A stretch of 39,244 nucleotides of DNA from a virus. Positions 7,402-38,371 of this stretch are shown here, piece by piece. The notes beneath the pieces were generated by a model. The model made no database searches, was not told where the DNA came from, and saw only the letters and a list, made by a program, of their open reading frames with translations. The first letter of the stretch is position 1. The number at the start of each line of letters is the position of its first letter. The position numbers and the translations under genes were made by a program. The DNA lies in UHGV virus genome UHGV-0144129, one strand, 5' to 3'.

Positions 7402-10053
7402 TTATTTTGATTCCAATAGTTCGAGTCGCTCTTCAATACGATCGCATCGGCGGCGCTGATATGCAGCCTCAAGCCAAGCGCACTGGTCAGGCCGTATGCC
7501 CCATGAACTACCCGCTTTTTTAACCAGCCTCTGTTCTCCGGTGTCATATTCGACGGTGACCAACTCACCAGACGCATCGGTAATCTCTTTAGTCGCGATT
7601 ACCGGCTCAAAAATATCGTCCCACTCGTCATAGCAAAGAAGGCCAAATCTGGTTCCATCAATTCCGTGCGCCAGGAATACATCTCTTACCTGCTGAGCCA
7701 TGACGCCAAAATGCCATCTGGCACCATCGCCCTTCATGGATATAGCGTCGAGCCATCGATACGCCACAACAGAAATATCGCCCCAGGCATCAAGAATGCT
7801 GTCTCTATCAGAAGAAAGCATTTCACTTAAATCTGATATTGCCTCGGGATTGGTTTTCAGCGTGGCATCTGATGAAACGGTTGGGGCATTTGCAAAGTAG
7901 GCGTCTTTAATACGAAACGATGCCTGACCAAAATTATAGGTATTGTCAGCAAACGGGCGAAGACCTGTATTATAAAACCGCCAGCGTATGGTTCCTCCCA
8001 ATGCTGTCGGGTCGCTGTTGCATGCAATATCCACCGTGGTGGCAGACCTAAACACAGAAGAACTACCGCCCAATACCAAGCTATTTGCGCTAGCTGTAGC
8101 CTGCTGGTCAAGGACCAATATTTTCTGAGAGTTTGTAGTTGCACCGGCATATGATGATGCAGTGATGCGGTTTAATTGGTTTGTATCAGGATCTGCGTTT
8201 TGCTGAATGGTTAAGTTAGATGCCCACTGTGCCGGTCGCTGGCGCACAAATACAAAGTCACCAGAAGGATTAGTTGCAACCAAATAACTAATGCCACTAT
8301 CAGATGAATAATAGTTGACTATAAAAGTCTGATTATTCGCATTCAGTATTTCAACATATGTGCTGGAAGGGATTGCCACGCCAGATATATCAGCAATGCT
8401 GACAGTCCCTGTGTAAAAATTAAATGCCTTCTGACTCATCTCCTGCATATAGCGAAGAATTTCAGTCATGTTAGTGAACAACGTACCATCTACAGGGTTA
8501 ACAATCCCCTTCGCACTACGGGGATATACCCCAATGCTCGCGTGATCGATATCAAATCCGCGGTAAAGCCTGGATGCAGGTGTAAAATCGATAGCATCTT
8601 TATCAGTGGAGAAATCTTCGAAAATAACCAAACCTGAATTGTAAGGTTCAGAGCCAGTTCTTTCCTGATGAATGTAAAGTGAATAAATGGATTTTCCATC
8701 CTGAGAAACACAAACGCCTTCATTTTCTATGCGAGTGACGTTCAATCCTGCGGCTTTCATTAAATCCATCATGGCCTGAGGATGAAGCATTGATTCAGTT
8801 CGCTTTGTACCGTCAGGGTTAAAAACTTTGCTGCCCTGATATTCGTTATATCCTGCGCTTCCTGCCCCATCAGCTATGAAGCCGCCATAGCCGCAGACAA
8901 AGTAGTTATCACCTACCGCAATACCCTGACGCTTGTTGAAATAAGGCGCATAAGGTGAGGTGCTTTTAGTTACATACCCAACATCATGTAACGGCAGCGT
9001 TATAGTTGACAGGCGATTGAAACCACTGTCGAACACTGCAAGTACAGTTCTTGTGATTTTCTGTCCTACTTCTGGCGCATTCTGCTCAACGAGCCATATA
9101 CCTCTTCTGTAGCTGAACTGGTTGAATAATCCAACATCATGGTTTTGTACAAGAGGCAGATTGCTTCCGTATAATGCCCCCTCCATATTAAATTCACGCA
9201 GTATTCCGTTTGTGTGACCAACAAACATTTTTTTTGGGCCATAGTCTGACGTAACCACGATTCCTTCAGCAGCGAAGCCTGGGCCGCCAGCCTGAACATA
9301 GAAATAACCTTGATAAATACCAGATATGTTAAATACTGCGACGACATTATTCGTCTGTTTAGGCTCAAATGGATAAGTGATGTATATCAAATCTTCGCTA
9401 ACGCAGAATCCTTGAGGATACATATAAGTTGCTGACGGGTTAGCAGCCATAATCGCATCATATTCAGGAAAAAGAAGCGGCATCGTAGCTACAATCTTTC
9501 TTTGGTGATTTGTAAAAATATCGTTTTTAGCGCTGTTAGGTGTAGGCGTTACACCTCCAGTAAAAAGATCATCAACATAACCTTTATTGACAGCATCGTT
9601 TCTGTCAGTGGCATTTGCTAGATTTGATATCTTATTATTTTTTGCATCATAATAGTTAGCCAGAATGCTTGGTTTTATAAGTGCTAACCTCATCCATGAA
9701 AAACACTTTTGAATAAGCATTGTCAGTTTATCGAACGCGTCTTCATGTACCTCAGCGAAGAACTTACCCTGATTACGCAAATCAGTATCCTGCGTAACCG
9801 GGAGCTCTCGTGATATAGAAATATGATAACCGTTAGCCAACGCCTTCGACAGAATTACATTACCGCCATTATATCCTCCAGCATTGGTTACTGTGTAGTC
9901 AGTATCCAGAACCAATTCTGTTACGTTCCCGTTCAGGTCAGACACCTGAACAACCAGGTCGGATTTTTTGAAAATACGGAAGGTATACGGAAATGATGTC
10001 GTAGCTCCGTTACCAGTGTATTCGTTGTGGTCAACTTCGGTTGAGACCGTCAT
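7402..10053 (-). CDS. tail fibre / tailspike with T7 gp17-like N-terminal anchor and C-terminal intramolecular chaperone (S74-type) domain
   Basis: N-terminus (YTGNGATTSFPYTFRIF...LDTDYTV) follows the T7 gp17 tail-attachment pattern. C-terminus (WHFGVMAQQVRDVF...GIDGTRFGLL) matches the auto-cleaving chaperone domain of endosialidases and L-shaped fibres. Position is after the internal virion genes, as in T7. Confidence 0.7.
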   Translation of the reverse strand: MTVSTEVDHNEYTGNGATTSFPYTFRIFKKSDLVVQVSDLNGNVTELVLDTDYTVTNAGGYNGGNVILSKALANGYHISISRELPVTQDTDLRNQGKFFAEVHEDAFDKLTMLIQKCFSWMRLALIKPSILANYYDAKNNKISNLANATDRNDAVNKGYVDDLFTGGVTPTPNSAKNDIFTNHQRKIVATMPLLFPEYDAIMAANPSATYMYPQGFCVSEDLIYITYPFEPKQTNNVVAVFNISGIYQGYFYVQAGGPGFAAEGIVVTSDYGPKKMFVGHTNGILREFNMEGALYGSNLPLVQNHDVGLFNQFSYRRGIWLVEQNAPEVGQKITRTVLAVFDSGFNRLSTITLPLHDVGYVTKSTSPYAPYFNKRQGIAVGDNYFVCGYGGFIADGAGSAGYNEYQGSKVFNPDGTKRTESMLHPQAMMDLMKAAGLNVTRIENEGVCVSQDGKSIYSLYIHQERTGSEPYNSGLVIFEDFSTDKDAIDFTPASRLYRGFDIDHASIGVYPRSAKGIVNPVDGTLFTNMTEILRYMQEMSQKAFNFYTGTVSIADISGVAIPSSTYVEILNANNQTFIVNYYSSDSGISYLVATNPSGDFVFVRQRPAQWASNLTIQQNADPDTNQLNRITASSYAGATTNSQKILVLDQQATASANSLVLGGSSSVFRSATTVDIACNSDPTALGGTIRWRFYNTGLRPFADNTYNFGQASFRIKDAYFANAPTVSSDATLKTNPEAISDLSEMLSSDRDSILDAWGDISVVAYRWLDAISMKGDGARWHFGVMAQQVRDVFLAHGIDGTRFGLLCYDEWDDIFEPVIATKEITDASGELVTVEYDTGEQRLVKKAGSSWGIRPDQCAWLEAAYQRRRCDRIEERLELLESK

Positions 10054-10156
10054 GTTAAATCTCCAGATAGTCGCAGCACCCGTTGCGCCGCATATCTGGT
10101 TATTCTATTACCTGAAAAACCACATATGGATAGATAATCCATAAATACGAAAAGAT

Positions 10157-10173
10157 ATTACCTTTCAGGTGAT
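10157..10173. promoter_or_regulatory. operator-like imperfect palindrome ATTACCT-TTC-AGGTGAT (family A)
   Basis: Member of a recurring TTACCT-N3-AGGTAA family. Lies about 50 bp upstream of the LexA box. Confidence 0.4.
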
Positions 10174-10209
10174 TTGCAAAACGTGCTGGATAGCAAACAA
10201 ATTATTTGC

Positions 10210-10229
10210 TACTGTATAAATATACAGTT
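10210..10229 (+). promoter_or_regulatory. LexA (SOS) box
   Basis: TACTGTATAAATATACAGTT is CTGT-N8-ACAG with an AT-rich spacer and TA flanks; 18 of 20 match the E. coli consensus TACTGTATATATATACAGTA. It sits about 20 bp upstream of the ATG at 10249. Confidence 0.65.
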
Positions 10230-10248
10230 ATTGCATGGAGAAGATAAG

Positions 10249-10506
10249 ATGCAGCAGTATCACTATCCACTGGAAGACGGATTTACCGAAAGGATTCACA
10301 CGCCGGGAGGCGTCAGGTCACTGGTGGAGGGATCGCACTTGATGAAATTACTCCGGGATCTCGATAAGGATGGATTTAATGTCGATGGCCCACTTGCCGA
10401 ACTGACTGCACTGATTAACTACGTCACCAGCTCACAGATGTCTATGCGGGATCTGCAAACACATCTCGACTATTGTGCCGAACAATTACGAAAACAAACC
10501 CGGTAA
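10249..10506 (+). CDS. SOS-controlled mini-antirepressor (stand-alone copy of the Ant C-terminal domain)
   Basis: GGAG 8 nt upstream of ATG. The 85 aa product aligns over its whole length with the C-terminal about 80 aa of both Ant proteins (PLxxGxxxxIHxPxGV...DGxxVxGxxAELTxxxxYxxxxxxxxRDxQTHxxY). Confidence 0.55.
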   Translation: MQQYHYPLEDGFTERIHTPGGVRSLVEGSHLMKLLRDLDKDGFNVDGPLAELTALINYVTSSQMSMRDLQTHLDYCAEQLRKQTR

Positions 10507-10528
10507 ATTTAAAGGCCGCAAGAGCGGC

Positions 10529-11257
10529 CTATCGTTTCGCTTTGTGCTCATCCCAGCACGTTTTGCACCATGCCATTAAGCCGTCCGCATTTTGATTATT
10601 AGGGTAAAAGCTGGTTCGTTTTCTGCGGACATTACAAATTGGGCACCACTTCATATGGCGTGTATTCTTTGGGCCATCGAGACACCTTGCACACCATTTA
10701 GTCAATCCATCTGGATTTTTTGACGATTTCCTGAATTTTTCATATGGAAGGTTTATTCTGCATCGCAAGCACTGCTTGCTACCACTTGAAACTCTGTTAG
10801 CTGATTCTTCTTTTGGCGGCGATACAGAAGGTATTCTTGCTGGCTCTGATATTGCCTGAGGTGCTTTTTTAGATGACTGAGACGATATGTCATCACCAGG
10901 GAATCTTCCATGATATGCCGGACGCGTTGACACTCCAGGTGGAATCTCAGCTGTAAACGGCTTTGGCTGAATCAGTTGCCTCTCTTTTGCTAACTCCTGC
11001 TGTTTATAATATGTCTGGATTACCGCACTATCATAAGCAGGAGGTGCGGAAATATTAGGCGCATTACCTCCAGTTTTTTGAAACTGAGTAGAGGTGTGTT
11101 CTATCACCTGTGTACGATTAATCGTTATCTCCCCATCTTCGGTCTTTATCGTTTTGTTATGATTAACGACCGTACGATCAGAGATCTTAGTCTTGTTCTG
11201 GTTGATAACGTAAATAATCACCGCAACCACACCAACAACTATCCAGAAAACTTCCAT
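10529..11257 (-). CDS. membrane-anchored protein with tandem zinc-ribbon motifs
   Basis: SD GAGG before ATG. N-terminal TM helix, Pro/Ser-rich linker, then two repeats of a P/ADGLxxWCxxC unit with extra CxxC pairs. Transcribed immediately before the tail fibre gene. Confidence 0.5.
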   Translation of the reverse strand: MEVFWIVVGVVAVIIYVINQNKTKISDRTVVNHNKTIKTEDGEITINRTQVIEHTSTQFQKTGGNAPNISAPPAYDSAVIQTYYKQQELAKERQLIQPKPFTAEIPPGVSTRPAYHGRFPGDDISSQSSKKAPQAISEPARIPSVSPPKEESANRVSSGSKQCLRCRINLPYEKFRKSSKNPDGLTKWCARCLDGPKNTRHMKWCPICNVRRKRTSFYPNNQNADGLMAWCKTCWDEHKAKR

Positions 11258-11276
11258 TGCTTTTCCTCACAATAAC

Positions 11277-11293
11277 ATTACCTTAAAGGTAAT
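11277..11293. promoter_or_regulatory. operator-like perfect palindrome ATTACCT-TAA-AGGTAAT (family A), with an adjacent half-site at 11301-11311
   Basis: Perfect 7-3-7 inverted repeat 20 bp upstream of the ATG of the minus-strand gene ending at 11257. A TTTCAGGTGAT half-site follows 8 bp later. Confidence 0.45.
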
Positions 11294-11656
11294 ATCTTGC
11301 TTTCAGGTGATCAAGCGTTAAACGTAATCAACCAAATACGGTTGATTTTAATATTTCTTCGCGTTTATCATTACCTTTGCGGTAAATTTACATTGCACTC
11401 CTCTTGTGCCATAGTAATCGGGCACTGGCAAAATCCAGTGCCGGGATTGGTCTCCCGGATTACTAAGTGGCGCATACCACGCCAGACGTGGTTTTTTTAT
11501 GCGTATAGCACAGTCATGCCAGAATTATGGTGGGCTGAATGGGGGTCCGAAAGGACGCCGGTACCACTTAGGCCGGTAAGACCAACTCCGTTCAGTTCAC
11601 CACCATCTGATTGGTCTCAGCGGTGGTGATGTAATTCGCTAAGTGGAGACGCCATC

Positions 11657-12313
11657 ATGAACGCTCAACTCATCCCCGTATTCAACGGCACTATATCTAA
11701 CGAAACAGCCCTACTTTGTAATGCCCGCGATCTGCACGCTTTTTTAGGTGTTAAAAAGGTGTTTGCAGCATGGATTACAAATCGCATATCAGAATACGAA
11801 TTCATTGAAAATCAAGACTATATTTTGCTTTCCAATTTGGGAAAGCAAACATCTGGTAGAGGCGGCCACAACCGCAAAGAGTACCACCTCACCCTTGATA
11901 CAGCCAAAGAGCTGGCGATGGTCGAGCGTAACGAAAAAGGTCGCCAGGTGCGACGCTACTTCATTGAATGCGAGAAACGTTTAAGACAACAAGAAACAAA
12001 AGTGGAGAAGGTCTTGTCAGGCTTCATGCCCGCCATTATGGAGGCGATCAAGCTGGAAGACAAAAAAGAATACAGCGCCCCACTGAAGCCCGGCTACCGT
12101 AGCCTGATTCATTCGCCGTCTGGTGTTCTCGGCCTGACGGAGAACTCACTGCTGATGAATTTGCTGAACCAGTTACAGGAAGACGGGCACGATGTATCGG
12201 GCGCGGCGGCGGAGCTGACCACCATGTTCTGCTACATCGTTGGTGTGAGCAAATGCCTGCGTGATATCCAGACGCACGCGGAGTACATCAACGACAAGGC
12301 AGGATTCTTCTGA
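11657..12313 (+). CDS. antirepressor-like protein (second Ant; Bro-N/ORF6N-like N-domain plus shared Ant C-domain)
   Basis: N-terminal region ([22 protein letters not shown]...) resembles phage antirepressor / Bro N-terminal domains. The C-terminal 80 aa are near-identical to the C-terminus of the Ant at 13323-14267. Confidence 0.55.
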
Positions 12314-12337
12314 CAGAACGGCGGCACAGGGATGTGC
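12083..12337. repeat. left arm of a ~255 bp inverted repeat (3' end of ant2 plus 25 bp of 3' UTR)
   Basis: Reverse complement matches 13300-13555 at roughly 95 percent, by eye alignment. Confidence 0.7.
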
Positions 12338-12385
12338 CTTTAAATAATTCTGTACAGATTGCAGACTGGGGGTGAATAGCGTACT

Positions 12386-12402
12386 ATTACCTCACGGGTG
12401 AT
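12386..12402. promoter_or_regulatory. operator-like imperfect palindrome ATTACCT-CAC-GGGTGAT (family A)
   Basis: Same left half-site as the other family A sites; about 140 bp upstream of the gene at 12543. Confidence 0.3.
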
Positions 12403-12542
12403 CCATAGCGATTAGGCACCGATACAGGAGGAGCCCACATGAGAAAATTTGACGAGTACGAAGGCGTTTAACATTCGGATAGTTCATTTACCCTAATGGT
12501 AAATCCCGCTTAAAGAAGCATCTATATATTATGAGGTGATGT

Positions 12543-13178
12543 ATGCCACAACAACTGCTGAATCCGGCAAAGGTAACTGAGGTTTTCGCTCATCTGAACG
12601 AAACTCCAGACAACCGCGCCCTGTATTCAGAGTTAGTGAACGGCAACGATGTCACATCTGATGTCAAAGGCGTTTCTCTGGCTCCTGGATACCGCGTTGT
12701 CCGTGTAGACGATCGTAAGAAAGGCGAGATTCCACAGGCGCACTTTGAACTGTCATTGATAAATGACCTCACCGAAGAGGTAGTGTATTACAATCGTGTC
12801 ATTATCCAGCCTGACAGCTATCTTAACTGCCGTCCTGTCACGCAGATATTGGTATGGAGAACCCAGAAGCCTAAGCATCGTGCTGTGCTTCATGATTTCG
12901 CCGGCATCATCTTCATGAACTACCTCTTGGAACGGTACGATATCATCGTGTCAGATCGCAACCAGACTCATGAAGGCATGTCGTTCTGGCAGGCTCGCAT
13001 GTATGACGCACTGGAACTTGGCCTCCACCTCTATGGTTACGACATGATGACATGCGAGCTGATAGAGATGAATAACGAGGAAGAGCTTGAGAAAGGTGAA
13101 ACCTGGTTGTGGGGTGATGCGGAAAACTTCCAAAACAGATTGGCCATAATTTCAAAGCATAAGCTGCCAATAAAATAG
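12543..13178 (+). CDS. hypothetical protein (cargo between the inverted repeats)
   Basis: 211 aa ORF with normal codon usage and its own terminator. No motif recognised. Confidence 0.5.
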   Translation: MPQQLLNPAKVTEVFAHLNETPDNRALYSELVNGNDVTSDVKGVSLAPGYRVVRVDDRKKGEIPQAHFELSLINDLTEEVVYYNRVIIQPDSYLNCRPVTQILVWRTQKPKHRAVLHDFAGIIFMNYLLERYDIIVSDRNQTHEGMSFWQARMYDALELGLHLYGYDMMTCELIEMNNEEELEKGETWLWGDAENFQNRLAIISKHKLPIK

Positions 13179-13185
13179 TTCTTTA

Positions 13186-13208
13186 AGCCCGCGGCGCGGG
13201 CTTTTTTG
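13186..13208 (+). terminator. rho-independent terminator of the 12543-13178 gene
   Basis: gcccgcg-gcg-cgggc hairpin followed by T6. Confidence 0.55.
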
Positions 13209-13244
13209 TGTCTGCGGATTCCCGCCCGGGTGGCGGTGGTATTC

Positions 13245-13272
13245 GTTAAAAACAAGGCCGCGAAAGCGGCCT
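13245..13272 (-). terminator. rho-independent terminator of ant
   Basis: ggccgcgaaagcggcc hairpin; on the minus strand it is followed by a ttgttttt run. Confidence 0.5.
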
Positions 13273-13284
13273 GTGACATGTCAC
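13273..13284. repeat. perfect 12-bp palindrome GTGACATGTCAC (family B, copy 1)
   Basis: Exact palindrome; identical copies at 31802-31813 and 34253-34264. Confidence 0.5.
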
Positions 13285-13299
13285 GATAGTTCCGTTTTG

Positions 13300-13555
13300 C
13301 ACATCCCTGTGCCGCCGTTCTGTCAGAAGAACCCTGCCTTGTCGTTGATGTACTCCGCGTGGGTCTGGATATCACGCAGGCACTTGCTCACACCGACGAT
13401 GTAGCAGAACATGGTGGTCAGCTCCGCCGCCGCGCCCGATACATCGTGCCCGTCGTCCTGTAACTGGTTAAGCAGATTCATCAGCAGTGAGTTCTCCGTC
13501 AGGCCGAGAACACCCGACGGCGAATGAATCAGACTGCGGTAGCCGGGCTTCAGCG
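13300..13555. repeat. right arm of the ~255 bp inverted repeat (3' end of ant plus 3' UTR)
   Basis: See the left arm at 12083-12337. Confidence 0.7.
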
Positions 13556-14267
13556 GATAACCATAACATTTTGTCTGTGTTTTAATTGCCTCACGAAGCG
13601 CATCTAACATCTTGACTGCCACTTCATCATTCTCTGATGCAGATCCAGCAGGGAGATGCTCCCCTTCAAGCGGAACCCGAGCAACAAGAGACAACGCTTC
13701 GGCGAATTGATCTTCATCAATTTCTTTGTACGAACAGCCAAAATGAGATTTCAGTGACGACCACATGGTGATCATCGCCTTAGCCTGTTTTTCTTTTGGC
13801 AGAGACTGACCGCGACTCATGACGAGTTGTTTAATGGCTTCCTGCTGTTCAGTGGTTATTTTACCCGGCAACGCCTTTTTAGCTTTGCGTGGGTTAACCA
13901 CATGGCCTTTAGTCCAGTACTCGTAGAGCACATCGTCACACTCTTCCTGATACTGGATTACCTTGTCGCGGATTTCAGGGCGGACTTTGTTAGGGCTGAT
14001 GGTTTGCAACCAGCCAGCAAGTTTGCGAAGTGCCAAACAAATAATCTCACGGCGCTGTTCATCCCCAGGAAGCTGCATTGTGATTTTCACAATGCAGGTT
14101 TTAAACCGCTGCTTCATTTTCGTAAACTGTGAAGCCCAATCCATACCCATGCCTTCAACGATAGGTTTCATTGGGGTGTACGGTTCTCCGTTGTGATTGA
14201 CAACATAAAGTTCTGCGCCGTGGAATGGCACGTTGATAGTAGATACCGCTGTTGCTATACTCGTCAT
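13323..14267 (-). CDS. ant: antirepressor Ant (AntA-type N-domain plus shared C-domain)
   Basis: N-terminus (INVPFHGAELYVVNHNGEPYTPMKPIVEGMGMDW) is AntA-like. Directly downstream of the arc-like gene, as in P22 immI. Confidence 0.7.
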   Translation of the reverse strand: MTSIATAVSTINVPFHGAELYVVNHNGEPYTPMKPIVEGMGMDWASQFTKMKQRFKTCIVKITMQLPGDEQRREIICLALRKLAGWLQTISPNKVRPEIRDKVIQYQEECDDVLYEYWTKGHVVNPRKAKKALPGKITTEQQEAIKQLVMSRGQSLPKEKQAKAMITMWSSLKSHFGCSYKEIDEDQFAEALSLVARVPLEGEHLPAGSASENDEVAVKMLDALREAIKTQTKCYGYPLKPGYRSLIHSPSGVLGLTENSLLMNLLNQLQDDGHDVSGAAAELTTMFCYIVGVSKCLRDIQTHAEYINDKAGFF

Positions 14268-14339
14268 GTCGTTAATTCCTATACGTAGTTTTACGATACT
14301 GAAGCCCTGACGGTCTGGCCACCGTTGGGCTTCGCTGTT

Positions 14340-14507
14340 TTATGCCACGCTATTCTTCTCACCAGTGAGTCCATACACTTTCCTCAGCTGATAGATAATC
14401 TCTGTATTGAACTTTCGGCATTCTTTTTCGCCATTTCTTTCAATAGCTAACTTCACATCGTCCGGAAAACGAACTCGTCGTTGACACATCTCTTTTGCTT
14501 TTTGCAT
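14340..14507 (-). CDS. Arc-like ribbon-helix-helix repressor
   Basis: Start is the internal ATG (MQKAKEM...) with SD AAGGAG 7 nt upstream. The RRVRFPDDVKLAIERNGEK...NTEIIYQLRK region has an RHH beta-strand plus two helices. Sits between the mnt-like gene and ant. Confidence 0.55.
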   Translation of the reverse strand: MQKAKEMCQRRVRFPDDVKLAIERNGEKECRKFNTEIIYQLRKVYGLTGEKNSVA

Positions 14508-14521
14508 TTCATATCTCCTTA

Positions 14522-14536
14522 GCCCCACCGTGGGGC
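14522..14536. promoter_or_regulatory. operator-like palindrome GCCCCAC-C-GTGGGGC at the ant promoter
   Basis: Perfect 7-1-7 palindrome just upstream of the arc SD. Its CCACNGTGG core recalls the P22 mnt operator (from memory). Confidence 0.4.
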
Positions 14537-14542
14537 AAAACA

Positions 14543-14571
14543 ATTGTCACACCGTGCGTCATTGATGTCAA
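14543..14571 (-). promoter_or_regulatory. candidate sigma70 promoter for arc-ant (P_ant-like)
   Basis: Minus strand: perfect -35 TTGACA (complement of 14566-14571), 17-bp spacer, -10 GACAAT (complement of 14543-14548). The palindrome above lies at the predicted start site. Confidence 0.4.
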
Positions 14572-14627
14572 GCACACGGTGAGGCATACTTCAATCATTG
14601 CAAGTAACTCAATATTTGGTGAAGAAC

Positions 14628-15059
14628 ATGAGCAGAGAAGATCCACAACTAAGGATCAGACTTCCCGTTGAAGTAAAAGAAAAAATAGAAATTTCTGCAA
14701 AAGCCAATAAGCGCTCAATGAACGCTGAAATAGTACAACGTCTTGACACCAGCTTTCTGAAAGATATTCATGAAGATGACGTAATTTCTGCTTATGAAGC
14801 AAAAATTATTGCAAACAATGCACGGCATGAAATATCAAATATTATTTTCAAAAGAACTTTTAATGAAATCAATAAGAAAATAACACTTGGACATACAAGT
14901 TTTTATATAAACCTTAATGACCTTGAACTGGAATCACTTGCAGATAATGATTACCAGATCATCTTTGAAAAAACATTTAATAAGCTCAATGAACTAGGTT
15001 ACATCATCTGTGAAAACTCATGGGATGCAGATGGTTTTGGAATTGAAATACCTGAATAG
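14628..15059 (+). CDS. mnt: Mnt-like ribbon-helix-helix repressor with a long AT-rich C-terminal extension
   Basis: MSREDPQLRIRLPVEVKEKIEISAKANKRSMNAEIVQRLDTSF closely parallels the N-terminus of P22 Mnt (sequence recalled from memory). Divergent from arc-ant. About 60 extra C-terminal residues compared with P22 Mnt. Confidence 0.6.
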   Translation: MSREDPQLRIRLPVEVKEKIEISAKANKRSMNAEIVQRLDTSFLKDIHEDDVISAYEAKIIANNARHEISNIIFKRTFNEINKKITLGHTSFYINLNDLELESLADNDYQIIFEKTFNKLNELGYIICENSWDADGFGIEIPE

Positions 15060-15149
15060 GAAGAACAAAAGGCGTGTACATATTACACGTCTTTAATACA
15101 ATTGAAAAACGCCACATTACTGATGTATGTTACAACAAGGAGCGATATT

Positions 15150-15713
15150 TTGAAAACCATATCTATATTAAAGGTTGCATTAGGCGTCGCTATTATTTTG
15201 ACTCTCTCAATATTGTTTTATTTTTACCACAAAAAAACTGCTATTGCTCTTGATGGTCACGCGGCAAACTCATTTTTCTCAGAGTACATAGTGCCGCTAT
15301 CAGGAAGCGGTATAACAAATAAATATACTGACTATGACATCAAATATGGAATTGATGATGGGGAGACTATTGCATTACATGTAATCATTAAAAACCTAAT
15401 GACAGTAAATAAAAATACAGACTTCAACGATAAAAATACAATACATCACAACAACAGCAAAACATTAATTTCTTATAGTAGCAACATCTATACGGATAAA
15501 TACCTAAAATACATCTCAGAAGATACAATAAAAGCAACCAGCGAAAAGTTAAAAAACATATATTGTGCATCCGGCAGTTTTCACAAATTATCGCCGCAAG
15601 AGCGTTTATTCTACGAAGCAAGAAAACAACGTAAGTCAATAATATTACATTATTATGCTGATTCAGGGGAGTCACTCATATTTAATATTGGGGTTTCCCC
15701 TGAATCATGCTAA
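15150..15713 (+). CDS. AT-rich membrane-anchored moron protein (candidate superinfection-exclusion or defence factor)
   Basis: Best start is TTG at 15150 with SD AAGGAG 7 nt upstream (the ORF track starts it at 15102). N-terminal TM helix (ISILKVALGVAIILTLSILFYF), then an N/K/Y/I-rich domain. Opposite strand to the flanking virion genes. Confidence 0.45.
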   Translation: MKTISILKVALGVAIILTLSILFYFYHKKTAIALDGHAANSFFSEYIVPLSGSGITNKYTDYDIKYGIDDGETIALHVIIKNLMTVNKNTDFNDKNTIHHNNSKTLISYSSNIYTDKYLKYISEDTIKATSEKLKNIYCASGSFHKLSPQERLFYEARKQRKSIILHYYADSGESLIFNIGVSPESC

Positions 15714-15724
15714 AGGCGTTTAAC

Positions 15725-18700
15725 TCACCGCATCACCGGATCCACCTGGTTTATTAGTGGCGCAATCCAGAACAGGTTATTGCCTGGTATCAGGGTTCGG
15801 ACATTATGCACAATACGATCACCGGCATCACCATTCAACACTCCTGCGGTCACATCAATGATGCTATCCGCAAGACCAAATGACGGTCCGAATAGAGATC
15901 CTACGAATCCACGACTGGCATACCTAGACTGTGTGCCAGTGCCAAATAAAGCCCCCAGCCCAACAGCACCACCAGTAGCCTTTTCAGCCATGTTGTTATA
16001 TTCCATCAATGGCCCAAGAATACCGGATCTATCTATACCCTCAAGCACCAGCTTCTCTGGTGACCAGTCAACATTTTTCCCTTTCGATGCTTCTTTTAGC
16101 GCATAGACCAGTGAGCCAAGAGCAATCTGAAATGCAGTGCCATAATAAAATTGCGCAGTTCCTTCCTGTAACCCACCAAGTAGCGCACGGTTGTATGAAG
16201 CCGTTGTGAATGATTTAAACTGAAATATCGTTCGCCCCATTGGAGTACTCGCCCATAAAGGTGTGTCACCAATACCGGGGGTGATGATAGTGTTATTAAC
16301 GTCTTTCAGAACCGCTGACTGGAATACTCCGGCAACGTACTGATCGTCCCATTTATCAAAGTTACCAATGTGCCATCCATCAATTACCTCACCATGTTTC
16401 TCGAACTCACTGCGAATACGCGCAGCCATATTGTCGTTGATACCGAGTTTTGCCATGCGACGTGCAGAAAACGCACCAGACAAAATACCGTCTGACGTGA
16501 GCATTCCGTTCATGGATTTGTTTATGTCATTAAATCGATCCATGAGTGTCAGCTTGCCGAAGGCATCAGTAATTCGCTCCATTCCTGCTTCGACTGCTGT
16601 TGTCCTGGAAGAACTGTCAACAAGATCACCAATTGCACGAGAACGTGAATGTAGTACAGCTTCCAATCCAATCCCCATCTTCAACATCTCTTCTTTGCTG
16701 GCCTTAAATGCCGGTGATTGGGATATCTGAGAAGCATAGCCTTTCATGGTGTTACGGAAACCATTAACCATAACCCCTCTGGCCAAATCTGGAATAGCTG
16801 ATACTGTCATTCCACCGAGTTTGGTCGTGAAGTTCACATCCCGCAGAAAAGCGCCAGCACGAACAAAAAACGAAGACGGATCATCAGGCATACCATATGT
16901 ACCAACAAGACGATCGCGTAATGCTGTTATGTCTCTGAGATCATTTGCTCTTGATTTTGAAAGTCTGGACTGTTCTTTCCGTAATTCCTTTTCGTACTTT
17001 CGCATTAATGAATCGAGTTTACCCTGAGGAACAACTTCACCATTGCTCTCATAACGTGCTTTCAGATTTGCCACACTTTCGTCATATTTCGCCTTTATTT
17101 TTTTAGGCACTTCCCGTAACAGACTGTCATATTCGTCCTCAATTAATTGCAGACGCTCAGTCATAGTTCGTTTGCCAAATGTTCTCGTCAGCTCAATTTC
17201 TGCTGCCGCTTCACGGATATGACGTTGCAGCACGTAATTCACATCACTTTCAAGATAATCCCTGATAAGACTATCAGGAACATTTAATGTTCTTTCTTTC
17301 GTACTACCTGCGGCTTTTACAGAAAATACGCTGACAAAATCCTGTGGAACCTTAGCACCAGTAATTTTATTAATTACGATATCCGCTGCAATTTCAGCAT
17401 CCTCAGGATCCAGTGTTTTATTTCCTCTCGACCACCAGTCAACCAAAATACGTCGAAATTTATCGCGTTCACTGATTATTTTTCCAACTTTATATATGCG
17501 TGGGAAATAGCTTGCCTGGCCTAATGCTTTCAGTTCTTCATCTGGCGGCAATAAACCAAGCTTTTGCATTTCAACTTTCACCCGATTTAATACAGTTCGC
17601 ATCGCCTGCGCCGTTTCCTGAACAACAGGATTAGCATGCACATCACCGCTTCGCATAGCATTCCCAACCTGCTGACGAAATGAATCAAAACTCATGTCAC
17701 CACCATCAGCTTTATACTTTGCGTATGCCTGTTTATTTCCGACAACAACAGCAGCTTCTTCACGCTGCCATCCACGTGTACGGGTTTCTACAGCTACCGG
17801 TGTTTCAATCCCCCTTTCATTTCCTTTAAGGGTGAAATTATTTTCGGCTAACTCCAGCGTTGTTTTTCGCACCGTCTTGGACGGAGACTCCATTAACCTT
17901 GTCAAAGGAGTAAGATAGCTCCCTGCTTTCCATGCAGCCTTTCCAACCCACCCACCGGAAACAGGGGTTAAATCATCCAGAGTCGCTGTATCAATTTTCA
18001 TAGCACCAACACTACCACCATCGGAAAGCGAAGCGGCAGCCCTGTCAGTCGCTGATGTAATGCTCATATTATCAAGAGCATCAGCAACCTCACGTGTGGC
18101 TGCAGCCCGGACGGATGGCGAAAGCGCAACACCAGCACTGGCAAACACGCCGCTCATCATCGCACCCGCTGCAACGTGAGCGGCACTTTCACCCCATGAG
18201 CGTGTTATTTGCTGATTATTCAGTACAACCTCGCTTAATGCTGTACCGGCAGCACCAATCGCAATCTGTGAGCCAATACGCGCCAGTGCCCCTCCTTGAG
18301 CACCGGGAATAAACATTGACGCAACAGTAACCGGATCCATTCCCGCAGCAATACTGGCAAGGGTTCCAACTACGCCAGCATCAGACAATAAACGTCTGTC
18401 TTCATTTTCATCATCTATCTGCTGCTTAATCCACGCCGTTTCCTCTGGCGATCGGGAATCTGCAAATTTCGCCCCCCAGTATTCATAACCGTGCAACTCA
18501 TTTTTATCAGCATATGGGTTATAACCCTCGACCGGTTCAAACTGTCTGGCTGGGCGGAAAAAACCAGACAGAATATTGTTCTGTCGCATTGCAGCCCCCC
18601 ATACGGAAGGCTCAGGTGGCAATGGCTCAGGATTAGCCCCTTCCGGAAGGGCAACATCAAACCCAGTTTGTTCCGGCAAAACATTACCTGACGGGATCAG

Positions 18701-38310: not shown

Positions 38311-38356
38311 TAAAAACCACATAAGACACGAAATCAATAGAGTTTAGAATATTTTG

Positions 38357-38371
38357 TTACCCAACAGGTAA
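38357..38371. promoter_or_regulatory. operator-like palindrome TTACCC-AAC-AGGTAA (family A, one mismatch)
   Basis: About 47 bp from the previous site, just downstream of a weak hairpin plus T7 terminator after P. Confidence 0.35.

Follow-up and report, generated by a model that had tools for sequence, protein, structure and literature searches.

The locus at 10157-10506 very probably encodes an orthologue of the antirepressor Ant of phage SPC32H, a LexA-repressed protein that would give the SOS response an input to prophage induction. This reading draws on homology, synteny, a LexA box, a cognate repressor (Rep) and that repressor's lack of a cleavage domain. The SPC32H-type Ant/Rep system is already known, and the mechanism of the E. 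coli copy is not new. A first-pass annotation made from the sequence alone had proposed a LexA-repressed antirepressor here, and the 87% identity to SPC32H Ant, together with the same synteny and box and the cognate Rep, argues for that proposal at the level of sequence. The features of the locus are as follows.

7402..10053, minus strand: tail-fibre gene, divergent from ant
10157-10173, no strand: Rep-operator-type palindrome ATTACCTTTCAGGTGAT, between the divergent tail-fibre and ant genes
10187-10192, plus strand: putative -35 element TGGATA of the ant promoter (P_ant), in the block T.CTGGA.A, invariant in eight phages
10210-10215, plus strand: putative -10 element TACTGT of P_ant, formed by the left arm of the LexA box
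10210-10229, plus strand: LexA box TACTGTATAAATATACAGTT, an 18/20 match to the consensus TACTGTATATATATACAGTA
10237-10243, plus strand: Shine-Dalgarno sequence GGAGAAG, read from the sequence, with GGAG at 10237-10240
10249-10506, plus strand: ant, very probably an 85-aa antirepressor and SPC32H Ant orthologue (ATG at 10249, stop codon ending at 10506)
10513-10530, no strand: GC-rich hairpin between the convergent ant and the gene at 10529..11257 (minus strand)

The locus lies in a stretch of 39,244 nucleotides (hereafter the window) that represents an E. coli prophage of the epsilon15/phiV10-like (Uetakevirus) type, the region being 95-99% identical to phiV10, TL-2011b and other E. coli Uetakevirus (epsilon15-like) podophages. 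Host genes (yfgH, yfgI, an AAA ATPase and others) occupy positions 1 to ~5200, and the prophage then runs in the order Rz, endolysin, holin, tail fibre, ant, structural genes, terminase and replication genes. The arrangement tail fibre (minus)/ant (plus)/structural genes (minus) is common to SPC32H, phiV10, TL-2011b and epsilon15; in E. coli P4, ant likewise stands alone at the end of the structural block, divergent from the tail-fibre gene. Over its last 400 nt the window does not differ from E. coli P4 and SCU-101; the prophages of these two strains continue past the window end with cro, rep, recombination genes and int, the last adjoining guaA.

A PDB-wide sequence search with the 85-aa protein returned one match, chain E of 5D50 ('Anti-repressor protein', E 1.4e-46), with 72 of 83 residues identical (87%) and residues 2-84 aligned to 3-85, that is, over the whole length. 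The homologous gene in the SPC32H GenBank record (KC911856) is annotated 'ant: anti-repressor protein'. When 50,697 phage records were searched with Ant by tblastn, the matches were confined to 35 Uetakevirus-type records. At 90% identity the family comprises 147 clusters, all from Enterobacteriaceae, and among the clusters listed nearly all are 85-86 aa long or represent the same ORF taken from an upstream start. A mechanical ORF listing gave a 110-aa ORF with a TTG start here (10174..10506); its start precedes the LexA box, and the homologues are 85-86 aa long with a conserved Shine-Dalgarno sequence and ATG, so we rejected it as the gene. The 85-aa ORF with a good ribosome-binding site was correctly recognised in the first-pass annotation.

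Of 5426 complete E. coli genomes, 529 (~10%) carry the ant locus, and in all 529 its product is called 'hypothetical protein'. No Pfam or NCBIfam model matched Ant, which has no DinI, Tum or other Pfam domain; it does match PHROG 450, labelled 'unknown function'. Routine annotation therefore misses an antirepressor that has been crystallised and given a defined function, and the SOS inducibility of these prophages is unpredictable from current annotations. Downstream of ant, a terminator scan called the hairpin at 10513-10530 on the minus strand, and the corresponding position in the epsilon15 record carries an annotated rho-independent terminator. The hairpin is likely a bidirectional terminator that makes ant monocistronic.

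Upstream of ant, TACTGTATAAATATACAGTT is the sole sequence in the 39-kb window that matches TACTGTATATATATACAGTA with no more than 3 mismatches (it has 2), and none of 100 shuffled sequences contained such a match. Its end lies 19 nt before the ATG, in agreement with the near-consensus box about 20 bp upstream of the ORF noted earlier. The shorter core CTGT-N8-ACAG was found 3 times in the window against 0.54 expected. One further copy, at 26753, lies within a GC-rich hairpin, and the other, at 31295 (TGCTGTAAACCAGTACAGCC), departs from the consensus at more than 3 positions; both have spacers without AT-richness and probably arose by chance.

We aligned the intergenic region between the tail-fibre gene and ant from 8 phages of E. 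coli, Salmonella, Enterobacter and Klebsiella. Mean column identity was 75%, and four blocks were invariant or nearly so: TATTACC..AACC..ATATG.AT near the tail-fibre gene, the palindrome ATTACC-N5-GGTAA, T.CTGGA.A, and, nearly invariant, the LexA box TA.TGT......ATACAGT. The box is kept across the E. coli, Salmonella and Enterobacter phages; its left arm is degenerate in those of Klebsiella, which have ATGT for CTGT, so LexA control may be weaker in them. The block GCATGGAGAAGA, in the Shine-Dalgarno region, is kept in the compared E. coli and Salmonella phages, substituted in Enterobacter phages and diverged in Klebsiella phages.

A simple promoter scan called no consensus sigma-70 promoter upstream of ant. 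From the conserved blocks and the likeness to promoter p95 of phage 186, we infer that P_ant consists of TGGATA and TACTGT separated by a 17-nt spacer, the proposed -10 agreeing with TATAAT at 3 of 6 positions. The LexA box would then overlap the ant promoter. In the 186 p95/tum record, a -10 element TACTGT is annotated inside the LexA box TACTGTATGTTTATACAGTA, the same layout as proposed for P_ant, and this 186 box is almost identical to that of SPC32H.

The partner of Ant was sought with SPC32H Rep as the query. In the window, tblastn gave nothing (E above 1), because the immunity region lies just beyond the window end. As rep is outside the window, we examined it in genomes that match both the right end of the window and the ant locus exactly. 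In the P4 and SCU-101 prophages, a Rep homologue of 194 aa (WP_000836290.1) is encoded ~1.5 kb past the window end. It matches PDB 5D50_A ('Repressor') with E 4e-42, is 42% identical to SPC32H Rep and contains two HTH regions, and a domain search found no Peptidase_S24 domain in it. The stretch NLVNRW in its N-terminal HTH region is conserved with SPC32H Rep and may be the recognition helix. Homologues of Ant and Rep occur in the same set of ~35 phage records. With only 42% of residues shared between this Rep and that of SPC32H, a conserved interface between Ant and Rep is an assumption.

Compared with the SPC32H Ant/Rep pair (PDB 5D50, 5D4Z), Ant is 87% identical and of nearly the same length (85 aa here, 86 aa in SPC32H). 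In both phages ant is divergent from the tail-fibre/tailspike gene, the CTGT-N8-ACAG core of the LexA box is equally far from the start codon, a palindrome ATTACC-N5-GGTAAT of the same operator family lies upstream of ant, and Rep is a two-HTH protein that lacks an S24 domain. The two differ in that the host here is E. coli, Rep is only 42% identical, and the window prophage has in addition a ~5-kb island with two larger Ant-ended proteins. On each feature that sequence analysis can address, the locus belongs with the SPC32H Ant family.

Over ~1 kb around ant, only two differences separate the deposited SPC32H and SPC32N records: a SNP in the tailspike gene and a C to A change in the LexA box. 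The latter falls in the CAG arm (CTGTATGTTTATACAG in SPC32H, CTGTATGTTTATAAAG in SPC32N), and at the homologous position the box in the window is intact. Kim and Ryu reportedly found in 2013 that Rep stays uncleaved during the SOS response, that ant is repressed by LexA, and that a single base change in the LexA box causes SPC32N to make Ant constitutively. The change in the deposited SPC32N sequence matches that account, as far as a sequence comparison can speak to it.

By orthology and on published evidence, we would expect the E. coli copy to behave as follows with regard to binding by LexA, contact of Ant with Rep, and induction. In the lysogen, host LexA would sit on 10210-10229, over the -10 element and start of a weak sigma-70 promoter, and keep ant silent. 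Upon DNA damage, activated RecA would promote self-cleavage of LexA, and a monocistronic ant mRNA would be made from the promoter to the hairpin at 10513-10530. The 85-aa product would bind Rep, a two-HTH protein without an S24 autocleavage domain, and, if the SPC32H precedent applies, an Ant tetramer would engage two Rep dimers and break the DNA-binding Rep tetramer. The TTACC-N5-GGTAA operators would thereby be freed and the lytic genes turned on. For these Salmonella phages, one paper describes an antirepressor that appears once LexA has cleaved itself and that blocks the repressor through direct contact between the two proteins (PMC7380047, citing Kim & Ryu 2013), and another describes the SPC32H Ant tetramer binding two Rep dimers and breaking the DNA-binding Rep tetramer (PMC9638917, citing Kim et al. 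2016). In E. coli, a microcin that damages DNA induced phiV10-type Uetakevirus prophages 21- to 47-fold (bioRxiv 10.64898/2026.05.26.727859), in line with the LexA-Ant model.

The palindrome ATTACCTTTCAGGTGAT at 10157-10173 is one mismatch off a perfect ATTACCT-N3-AGGTAAT. Allowing up to 2 mismatches, ATTACCT-N3-AGGTAAT occurs at 7 sites in the window against 0.10 expected; allowing up to 1 mismatch, the core TTACC-N5-GGTAA occurs at 10 sites against 0.77 expected. In the identical prophage, members of the TTACC-N5-GGTAA family fill the interval between rep and cro and the stretch immediately behind rep. SPC32H carries three of them in the interval from rep to the divergent gene, plus a perfect one ahead of ant. 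In the epsilon15 RefSeq record, palindromes, including one upstream of gp19 (the ant of that phage), are annotated as 'repressor; lysogeny' binding sites. The palindrome, earlier assigned to a 'family A', is thus a putative Rep operator of a kind already annotated in epsilon15.

Which promoter this operator serves can be read in two ways. We give an even chance to the possibility that it is the Rep operator of a leftward promoter for the tail-fibre and lysis genes, with ant under LexA alone. A composite of TTACC-N5-GGTAA followed, after a spacer defined as N28..40, by (A/T)TATGTGGTT occurs three times in the same orientation, each time preceding a minus-strand unit, with the motif 28 nt away at the tail-fibre gene and 32 and 41 nt away at the other two units:

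operator 10173..10157 and motif 10127..10118, minus strand: composite before the tail-fibre gene
operator 30781..30765 and motif 30723..30714, minus strand: composite before the gp3 homologue
operator 38371..38357 and motif 38324..38315, minus strand: composite before the DUF1064 gene

In epsilon15 the motif comes after the repressor sites annotated ahead of gp3 and the resolvase gene, and it also stands before the lysis cassette. In the 8 aligned phages, no gaps interrupt the interval from the motif block to the palindrome. Moreover, the hairpin after ant would block late read-through, so that the tail-fibre and lysis genes need a promoter of their own. Against this, the 10-mer ATATGTGGTT taken alone is not enriched in the window (5 copies against 2.7 expected, with 14 of 100 shuffled sequences reaching 5), the promoter scan called no leftward consensus promoter, and one operator can serve both divergent promoters. 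It is the repeated pairing of ATATGTGGTT with operators, rather than the motif itself, that suggests a leftward promoter. The geometry of the palindrome fits a module for leftward tail-fibre transcription at least as well as it fits ant.

A second reading, which we consider rather unlikely, is that Rep bound at 10157-10173 also damps P_ant, so that ant is doubly controlled. LexA cleavage would then release a trickle of Ant, removal of Rep would allow more ant transcription, and the positive feedback would sharpen the commitment to induction. In favour of such double control, the palindrome is of one family with the rep-cro and post-rep operators and lies just 14 nt upstream of the proposed -35 element; throughout the genus it keeps both its sequence and its distance from the LexA box, and epsilon15 has an annotated repressor site there, in an IHF-operator-gene order like that upstream of gp3. 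On the other hand, the palindrome is located at about -50 to -66 from the proposed start, off the promoter core, and the operator also fits the leftward module. In addition, SPC32N keeps a perfect palindrome, has one base of the LexA box changed and is said to make Ant constitutively; if so, Rep binding is hardly a sufficient lock on ant. The second layer of control proposed in the first-pass annotation is upheld as to the palindrome, which is real and belongs to the Rep-operator family, but, if SPC32N does make Ant constitutively, not as a sufficient second lock on ant.

Other known antirepressors resemble Ant to different degrees. Tum of phage 186, and likewise that of Fels-2, is alike in logic: the promoter of its small gene is covered by a LexA box, and the product is an antirepressor that inactivates a non-cleavable CI. 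By BLASTP, however, Ant shows no detectable similarity to 186 Tum (E 0.056, 14/47 identical) and, having no DinI or other Pfam domain, was rejected as a member of the Tum family; Tum is annotated as a DinI-type RecA-filament-binding protein, and 186 is a P2-like myovirus, whereas the prophage here is of a podovirus. The target repressors of Tum and Ant are unrelated. Ant is reportedly (Kim and Ryu again) structurally distinct from the antirepressors of Sipho- and Myoviridae. GfoA and GfhA of Gifsy-1/Gifsy-3 are like Ant in logic, as judged from published descriptions: the Gifsy antirepressors are small, LexA-repressed proteins that inactivate non-cleavable repressors, with cross-talk between prophages possible (PMC7380047). 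The earlier comparison with Gifsy and 186 Tum therefore stands for the functional logic and fails for homology to Tum.

The small Ant has a counterpart at the C-terminus of each of two larger proteins encoded downstream in the window, as had been claimed. These proteins and their regulatory surroundings are as follows.

11422-11498, plus strand: IsrK-like sRNA (Rfam isrK, 67.7 bits, above the gathering score), in the leader of the AntA fusion
11523-11607, plus strand: C4 antisense RNA (Rfam C4, 61.2 bits, above the gathering score), in the same leader
11657..12313, plus strand: paralogue 1, with an AntA domain (Pfam, 4e-26) and an Ant-like C-terminus (aa 135-218)
13323..14267, minus strand: paralogue 2, with a P22_AR_N domain (Pfam, 1e-44) and an Ant-like C-terminus (aa 232-314)
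14269..15059, no strand: P22 immI-like module of paralogue 2, made up of the next three features
14269-14336, plus strand: sar antisense RNA (Rfam, 45.2 bits against a gathering score of 43)
14340-14507, minus strand: arc-like gene (PHROG 'Arc-like repressor')
14628-15059, plus strand: mnt-like gene (Pfam Arc, 1e-14; PHROG 'Arc-like repressor')

With the 85-aa Ant as the query, tblastn against the window detected the C-termini of paralogue 1 (41% identity, E 3e-14) and paralogue 2 (46% identity, E 1e-14). Both match residues 3-79 of 5D50_E (E 4.6e-14 and 1.4e-13, respectively) as well as PHROG 450, and an alignment of the two with the small Ants of five phages contained 22 invariant positions. 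Neither larger protein has a Pfam match to P22_AR_C, and the small Ant matches neither P22_AR_N nor P22_AR_C in Pfam. Within the phage collection, the Ant-like domain is found in the Uetakevirus set only. The Salmonella members of the set have the free form of Ant only; among those of E. coli, Enterobacter and Klebsiella, many have a fusion as well.

Paralogue 2 resembles the ant of P22 immI (mnt-arc-sar-ant), since its P22_AR_N domain is accompanied by arc-like and mnt-like genes and sar; TL-2011b is annotated with the same arrangement, an Arc-like repressor together with an anti-repressor Ant. The small ant is unlike P22 immI in having no arc, mnt, sar or RNA controls. Paralogue 1 resembles the ant of P1/P7 immI (c4 RNA-icd-ant) in that AntA stands behind a C4 RNA, here joined by IsrK. 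Rep-type operators at 11278 and 11371 also precede the AntA fusion, and that at 11371 abuts or overlaps predicted promoters. Unlike in P22 and P1/P7, the C-terminal part of both proteins here is replaced by a domain like SPC32H Ant.

A single prophage thus appears to place one putative Rep-binding module under three separate controls, an arrangement of which we found no description. We tentatively propose, as a possibility somewhat short of even, that Rep serves as a hub for SOS, superinfection/anti-immunity and RNA signals, and that Ant perhaps acts across heteroimmune Uetakevirus prophages. The free 85-aa Ant under LexA may report DNA damage; the AntA-Ant fusion may provide a second input, following P1 immI logic, behind the IsrK and C4 RNAs and the Rep-type operators; and the P22_AR_N-Ant fusion may provide a third under Arc/Mnt/Sar control, following P22 immI logic. 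That Ant is 87% conserved and Rep 42% is the reason why Ant might act across heteroimmune prophages, in a Gifsy-like manner.

It is very improbable that the ORF is instead an SOS-induced accessory gene, for example for a DinI-like modulator of RecA/LexA, with the prophage induced by another route such as the larger Ant proteins: the lack of a Pfam or NCBIfam model, the labels 'unknown function' in PHROG 450 and 'hypothetical' in the 529 E. coli genomes, and the far stronger conservation of Ant than of its supposed target would allow it, but full-length identity of 87% to a protein crystallised with Rep, strict co-occurrence with Rep homologues, the lack of similarity to Tum or DinI, and antirepression demonstrated in Salmonella relatives without the larger Ants all argue for an antirepressor.

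The Ant-like domain recurs at the C-terminus of 'antirepressors' of the AntA, P22_AR_N and Bro-N types, and this shared C-terminus offers a hypothesis on which part of large antirepressors carries the specificity for the repressor. The larger Ant-ended proteins of the window sit on the ~5-kb island, which SPC32H and epsilon15 do without; P4 carries a Bro-N gene where the window has the AntA/immI island.

Ant of the window (10249-10506), the orthologue of the LexA-controlled antirepressor of Salmonella phage SPC32H, is 87% identical to SPC32H Ant, whereas its cognate repressor Rep (L005:15359-15943, at a locus outside the window) is just 42% identical to SPC32H Rep. Enterobacter phages showed a similar imbalance (78-86% for Ant, ~45% for Rep); Klebsiella phages did not, with both proteins at ~64%. 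The operators are conserved, and so is the NLVNRW stretch in the HTH region at the N-terminus of Rep. This pattern is a hint that antirepression is cross-reactive or that modules were exchanged.

Of 5426 complete E. coli genomes, 529 carry the ant locus; among the matches listed the gene is labelled 'hypothetical protein' in all cases. No model for the protein was found in Pfam or NCBIfam, and PHROG 450 (Ant) carries the label 'unknown function', although the orthologue has a crystal structure.

Between ant and the structural genes lies a mosaic island of ~5 kb (10500-15750), at least 80% of which is covered in only 2 of the 5426 genomes. In E. coli strain P4, whose sequence is identical at either end of the prophage, a Bro-N gene replaces the AntA and immI modules. 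The leader of the AntA-domain antirepressor gene (11657..12313) holds two RNAs, each matched in Rfam above the gathering score:
11422-11498, plus strand, IsrK-like Hfq-binding sRNA
11523-11607, plus strand, C4 antisense RNA
A similar arrangement is found in P1 immI. The predicted promoters upstream of the gene are flanked by Rep-type operators (palindromes of the TTACC-N5-GGTAA family, putative Rep binding sites) at 11278 and 11371. Two further operators precede 12543..13178, which encodes a 211-aa protein of PHROG 1349 (function unknown), and a mini-ORF of 10 codons (12440-12472) lies between them:
12387-12401, Rep-type operator
12488-12502, Rep-type operator

Another module (13323-15059) resembles P22 immI in the following elements:
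14628..15059, plus strand, mnt-like gene
14340..14507, minus strand, arc-like gene
14269-14336, plus strand, sar antisense RNA
within 13323-15059, ant gene with a P22_AR_N N-terminus
The product of this ant gene ends in an SPC32H-Ant-like domain in place of P22_AR_C.

On the minus strand, a composite of a Rep-type operator, a gap of 28-41 nt and the 10-mer (A/T)TATGTGGTT recurs in the window ahead of three genes:
operator 10157-10173, motif 10118-10127, minus strand, tail-fibre gene
operator 30765-30781, motif 30714-30723, minus strand, gp3 homologue
operator 38357-38371, motif 38315-38324, minus strand, DUF1064 gene
In epsilon15 the two elements are likewise paired ahead of gp3 and ahead of the resolvase gene. 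The 10-mer by itself is not enriched in the window; the composite may represent a promoter module of the late or middle type.

Another site, TGCTGTAAACCAGTACAGCC (31293-31312), resembles a LexA box only weakly; it departs from the LexA consensus at more than 3 positions and is probably a chance match. It lies 66 nt upstream of ORF 31378..31797, a moron-like ORF of 139 aa beside the phage tRNA-Arg (31103-31176).
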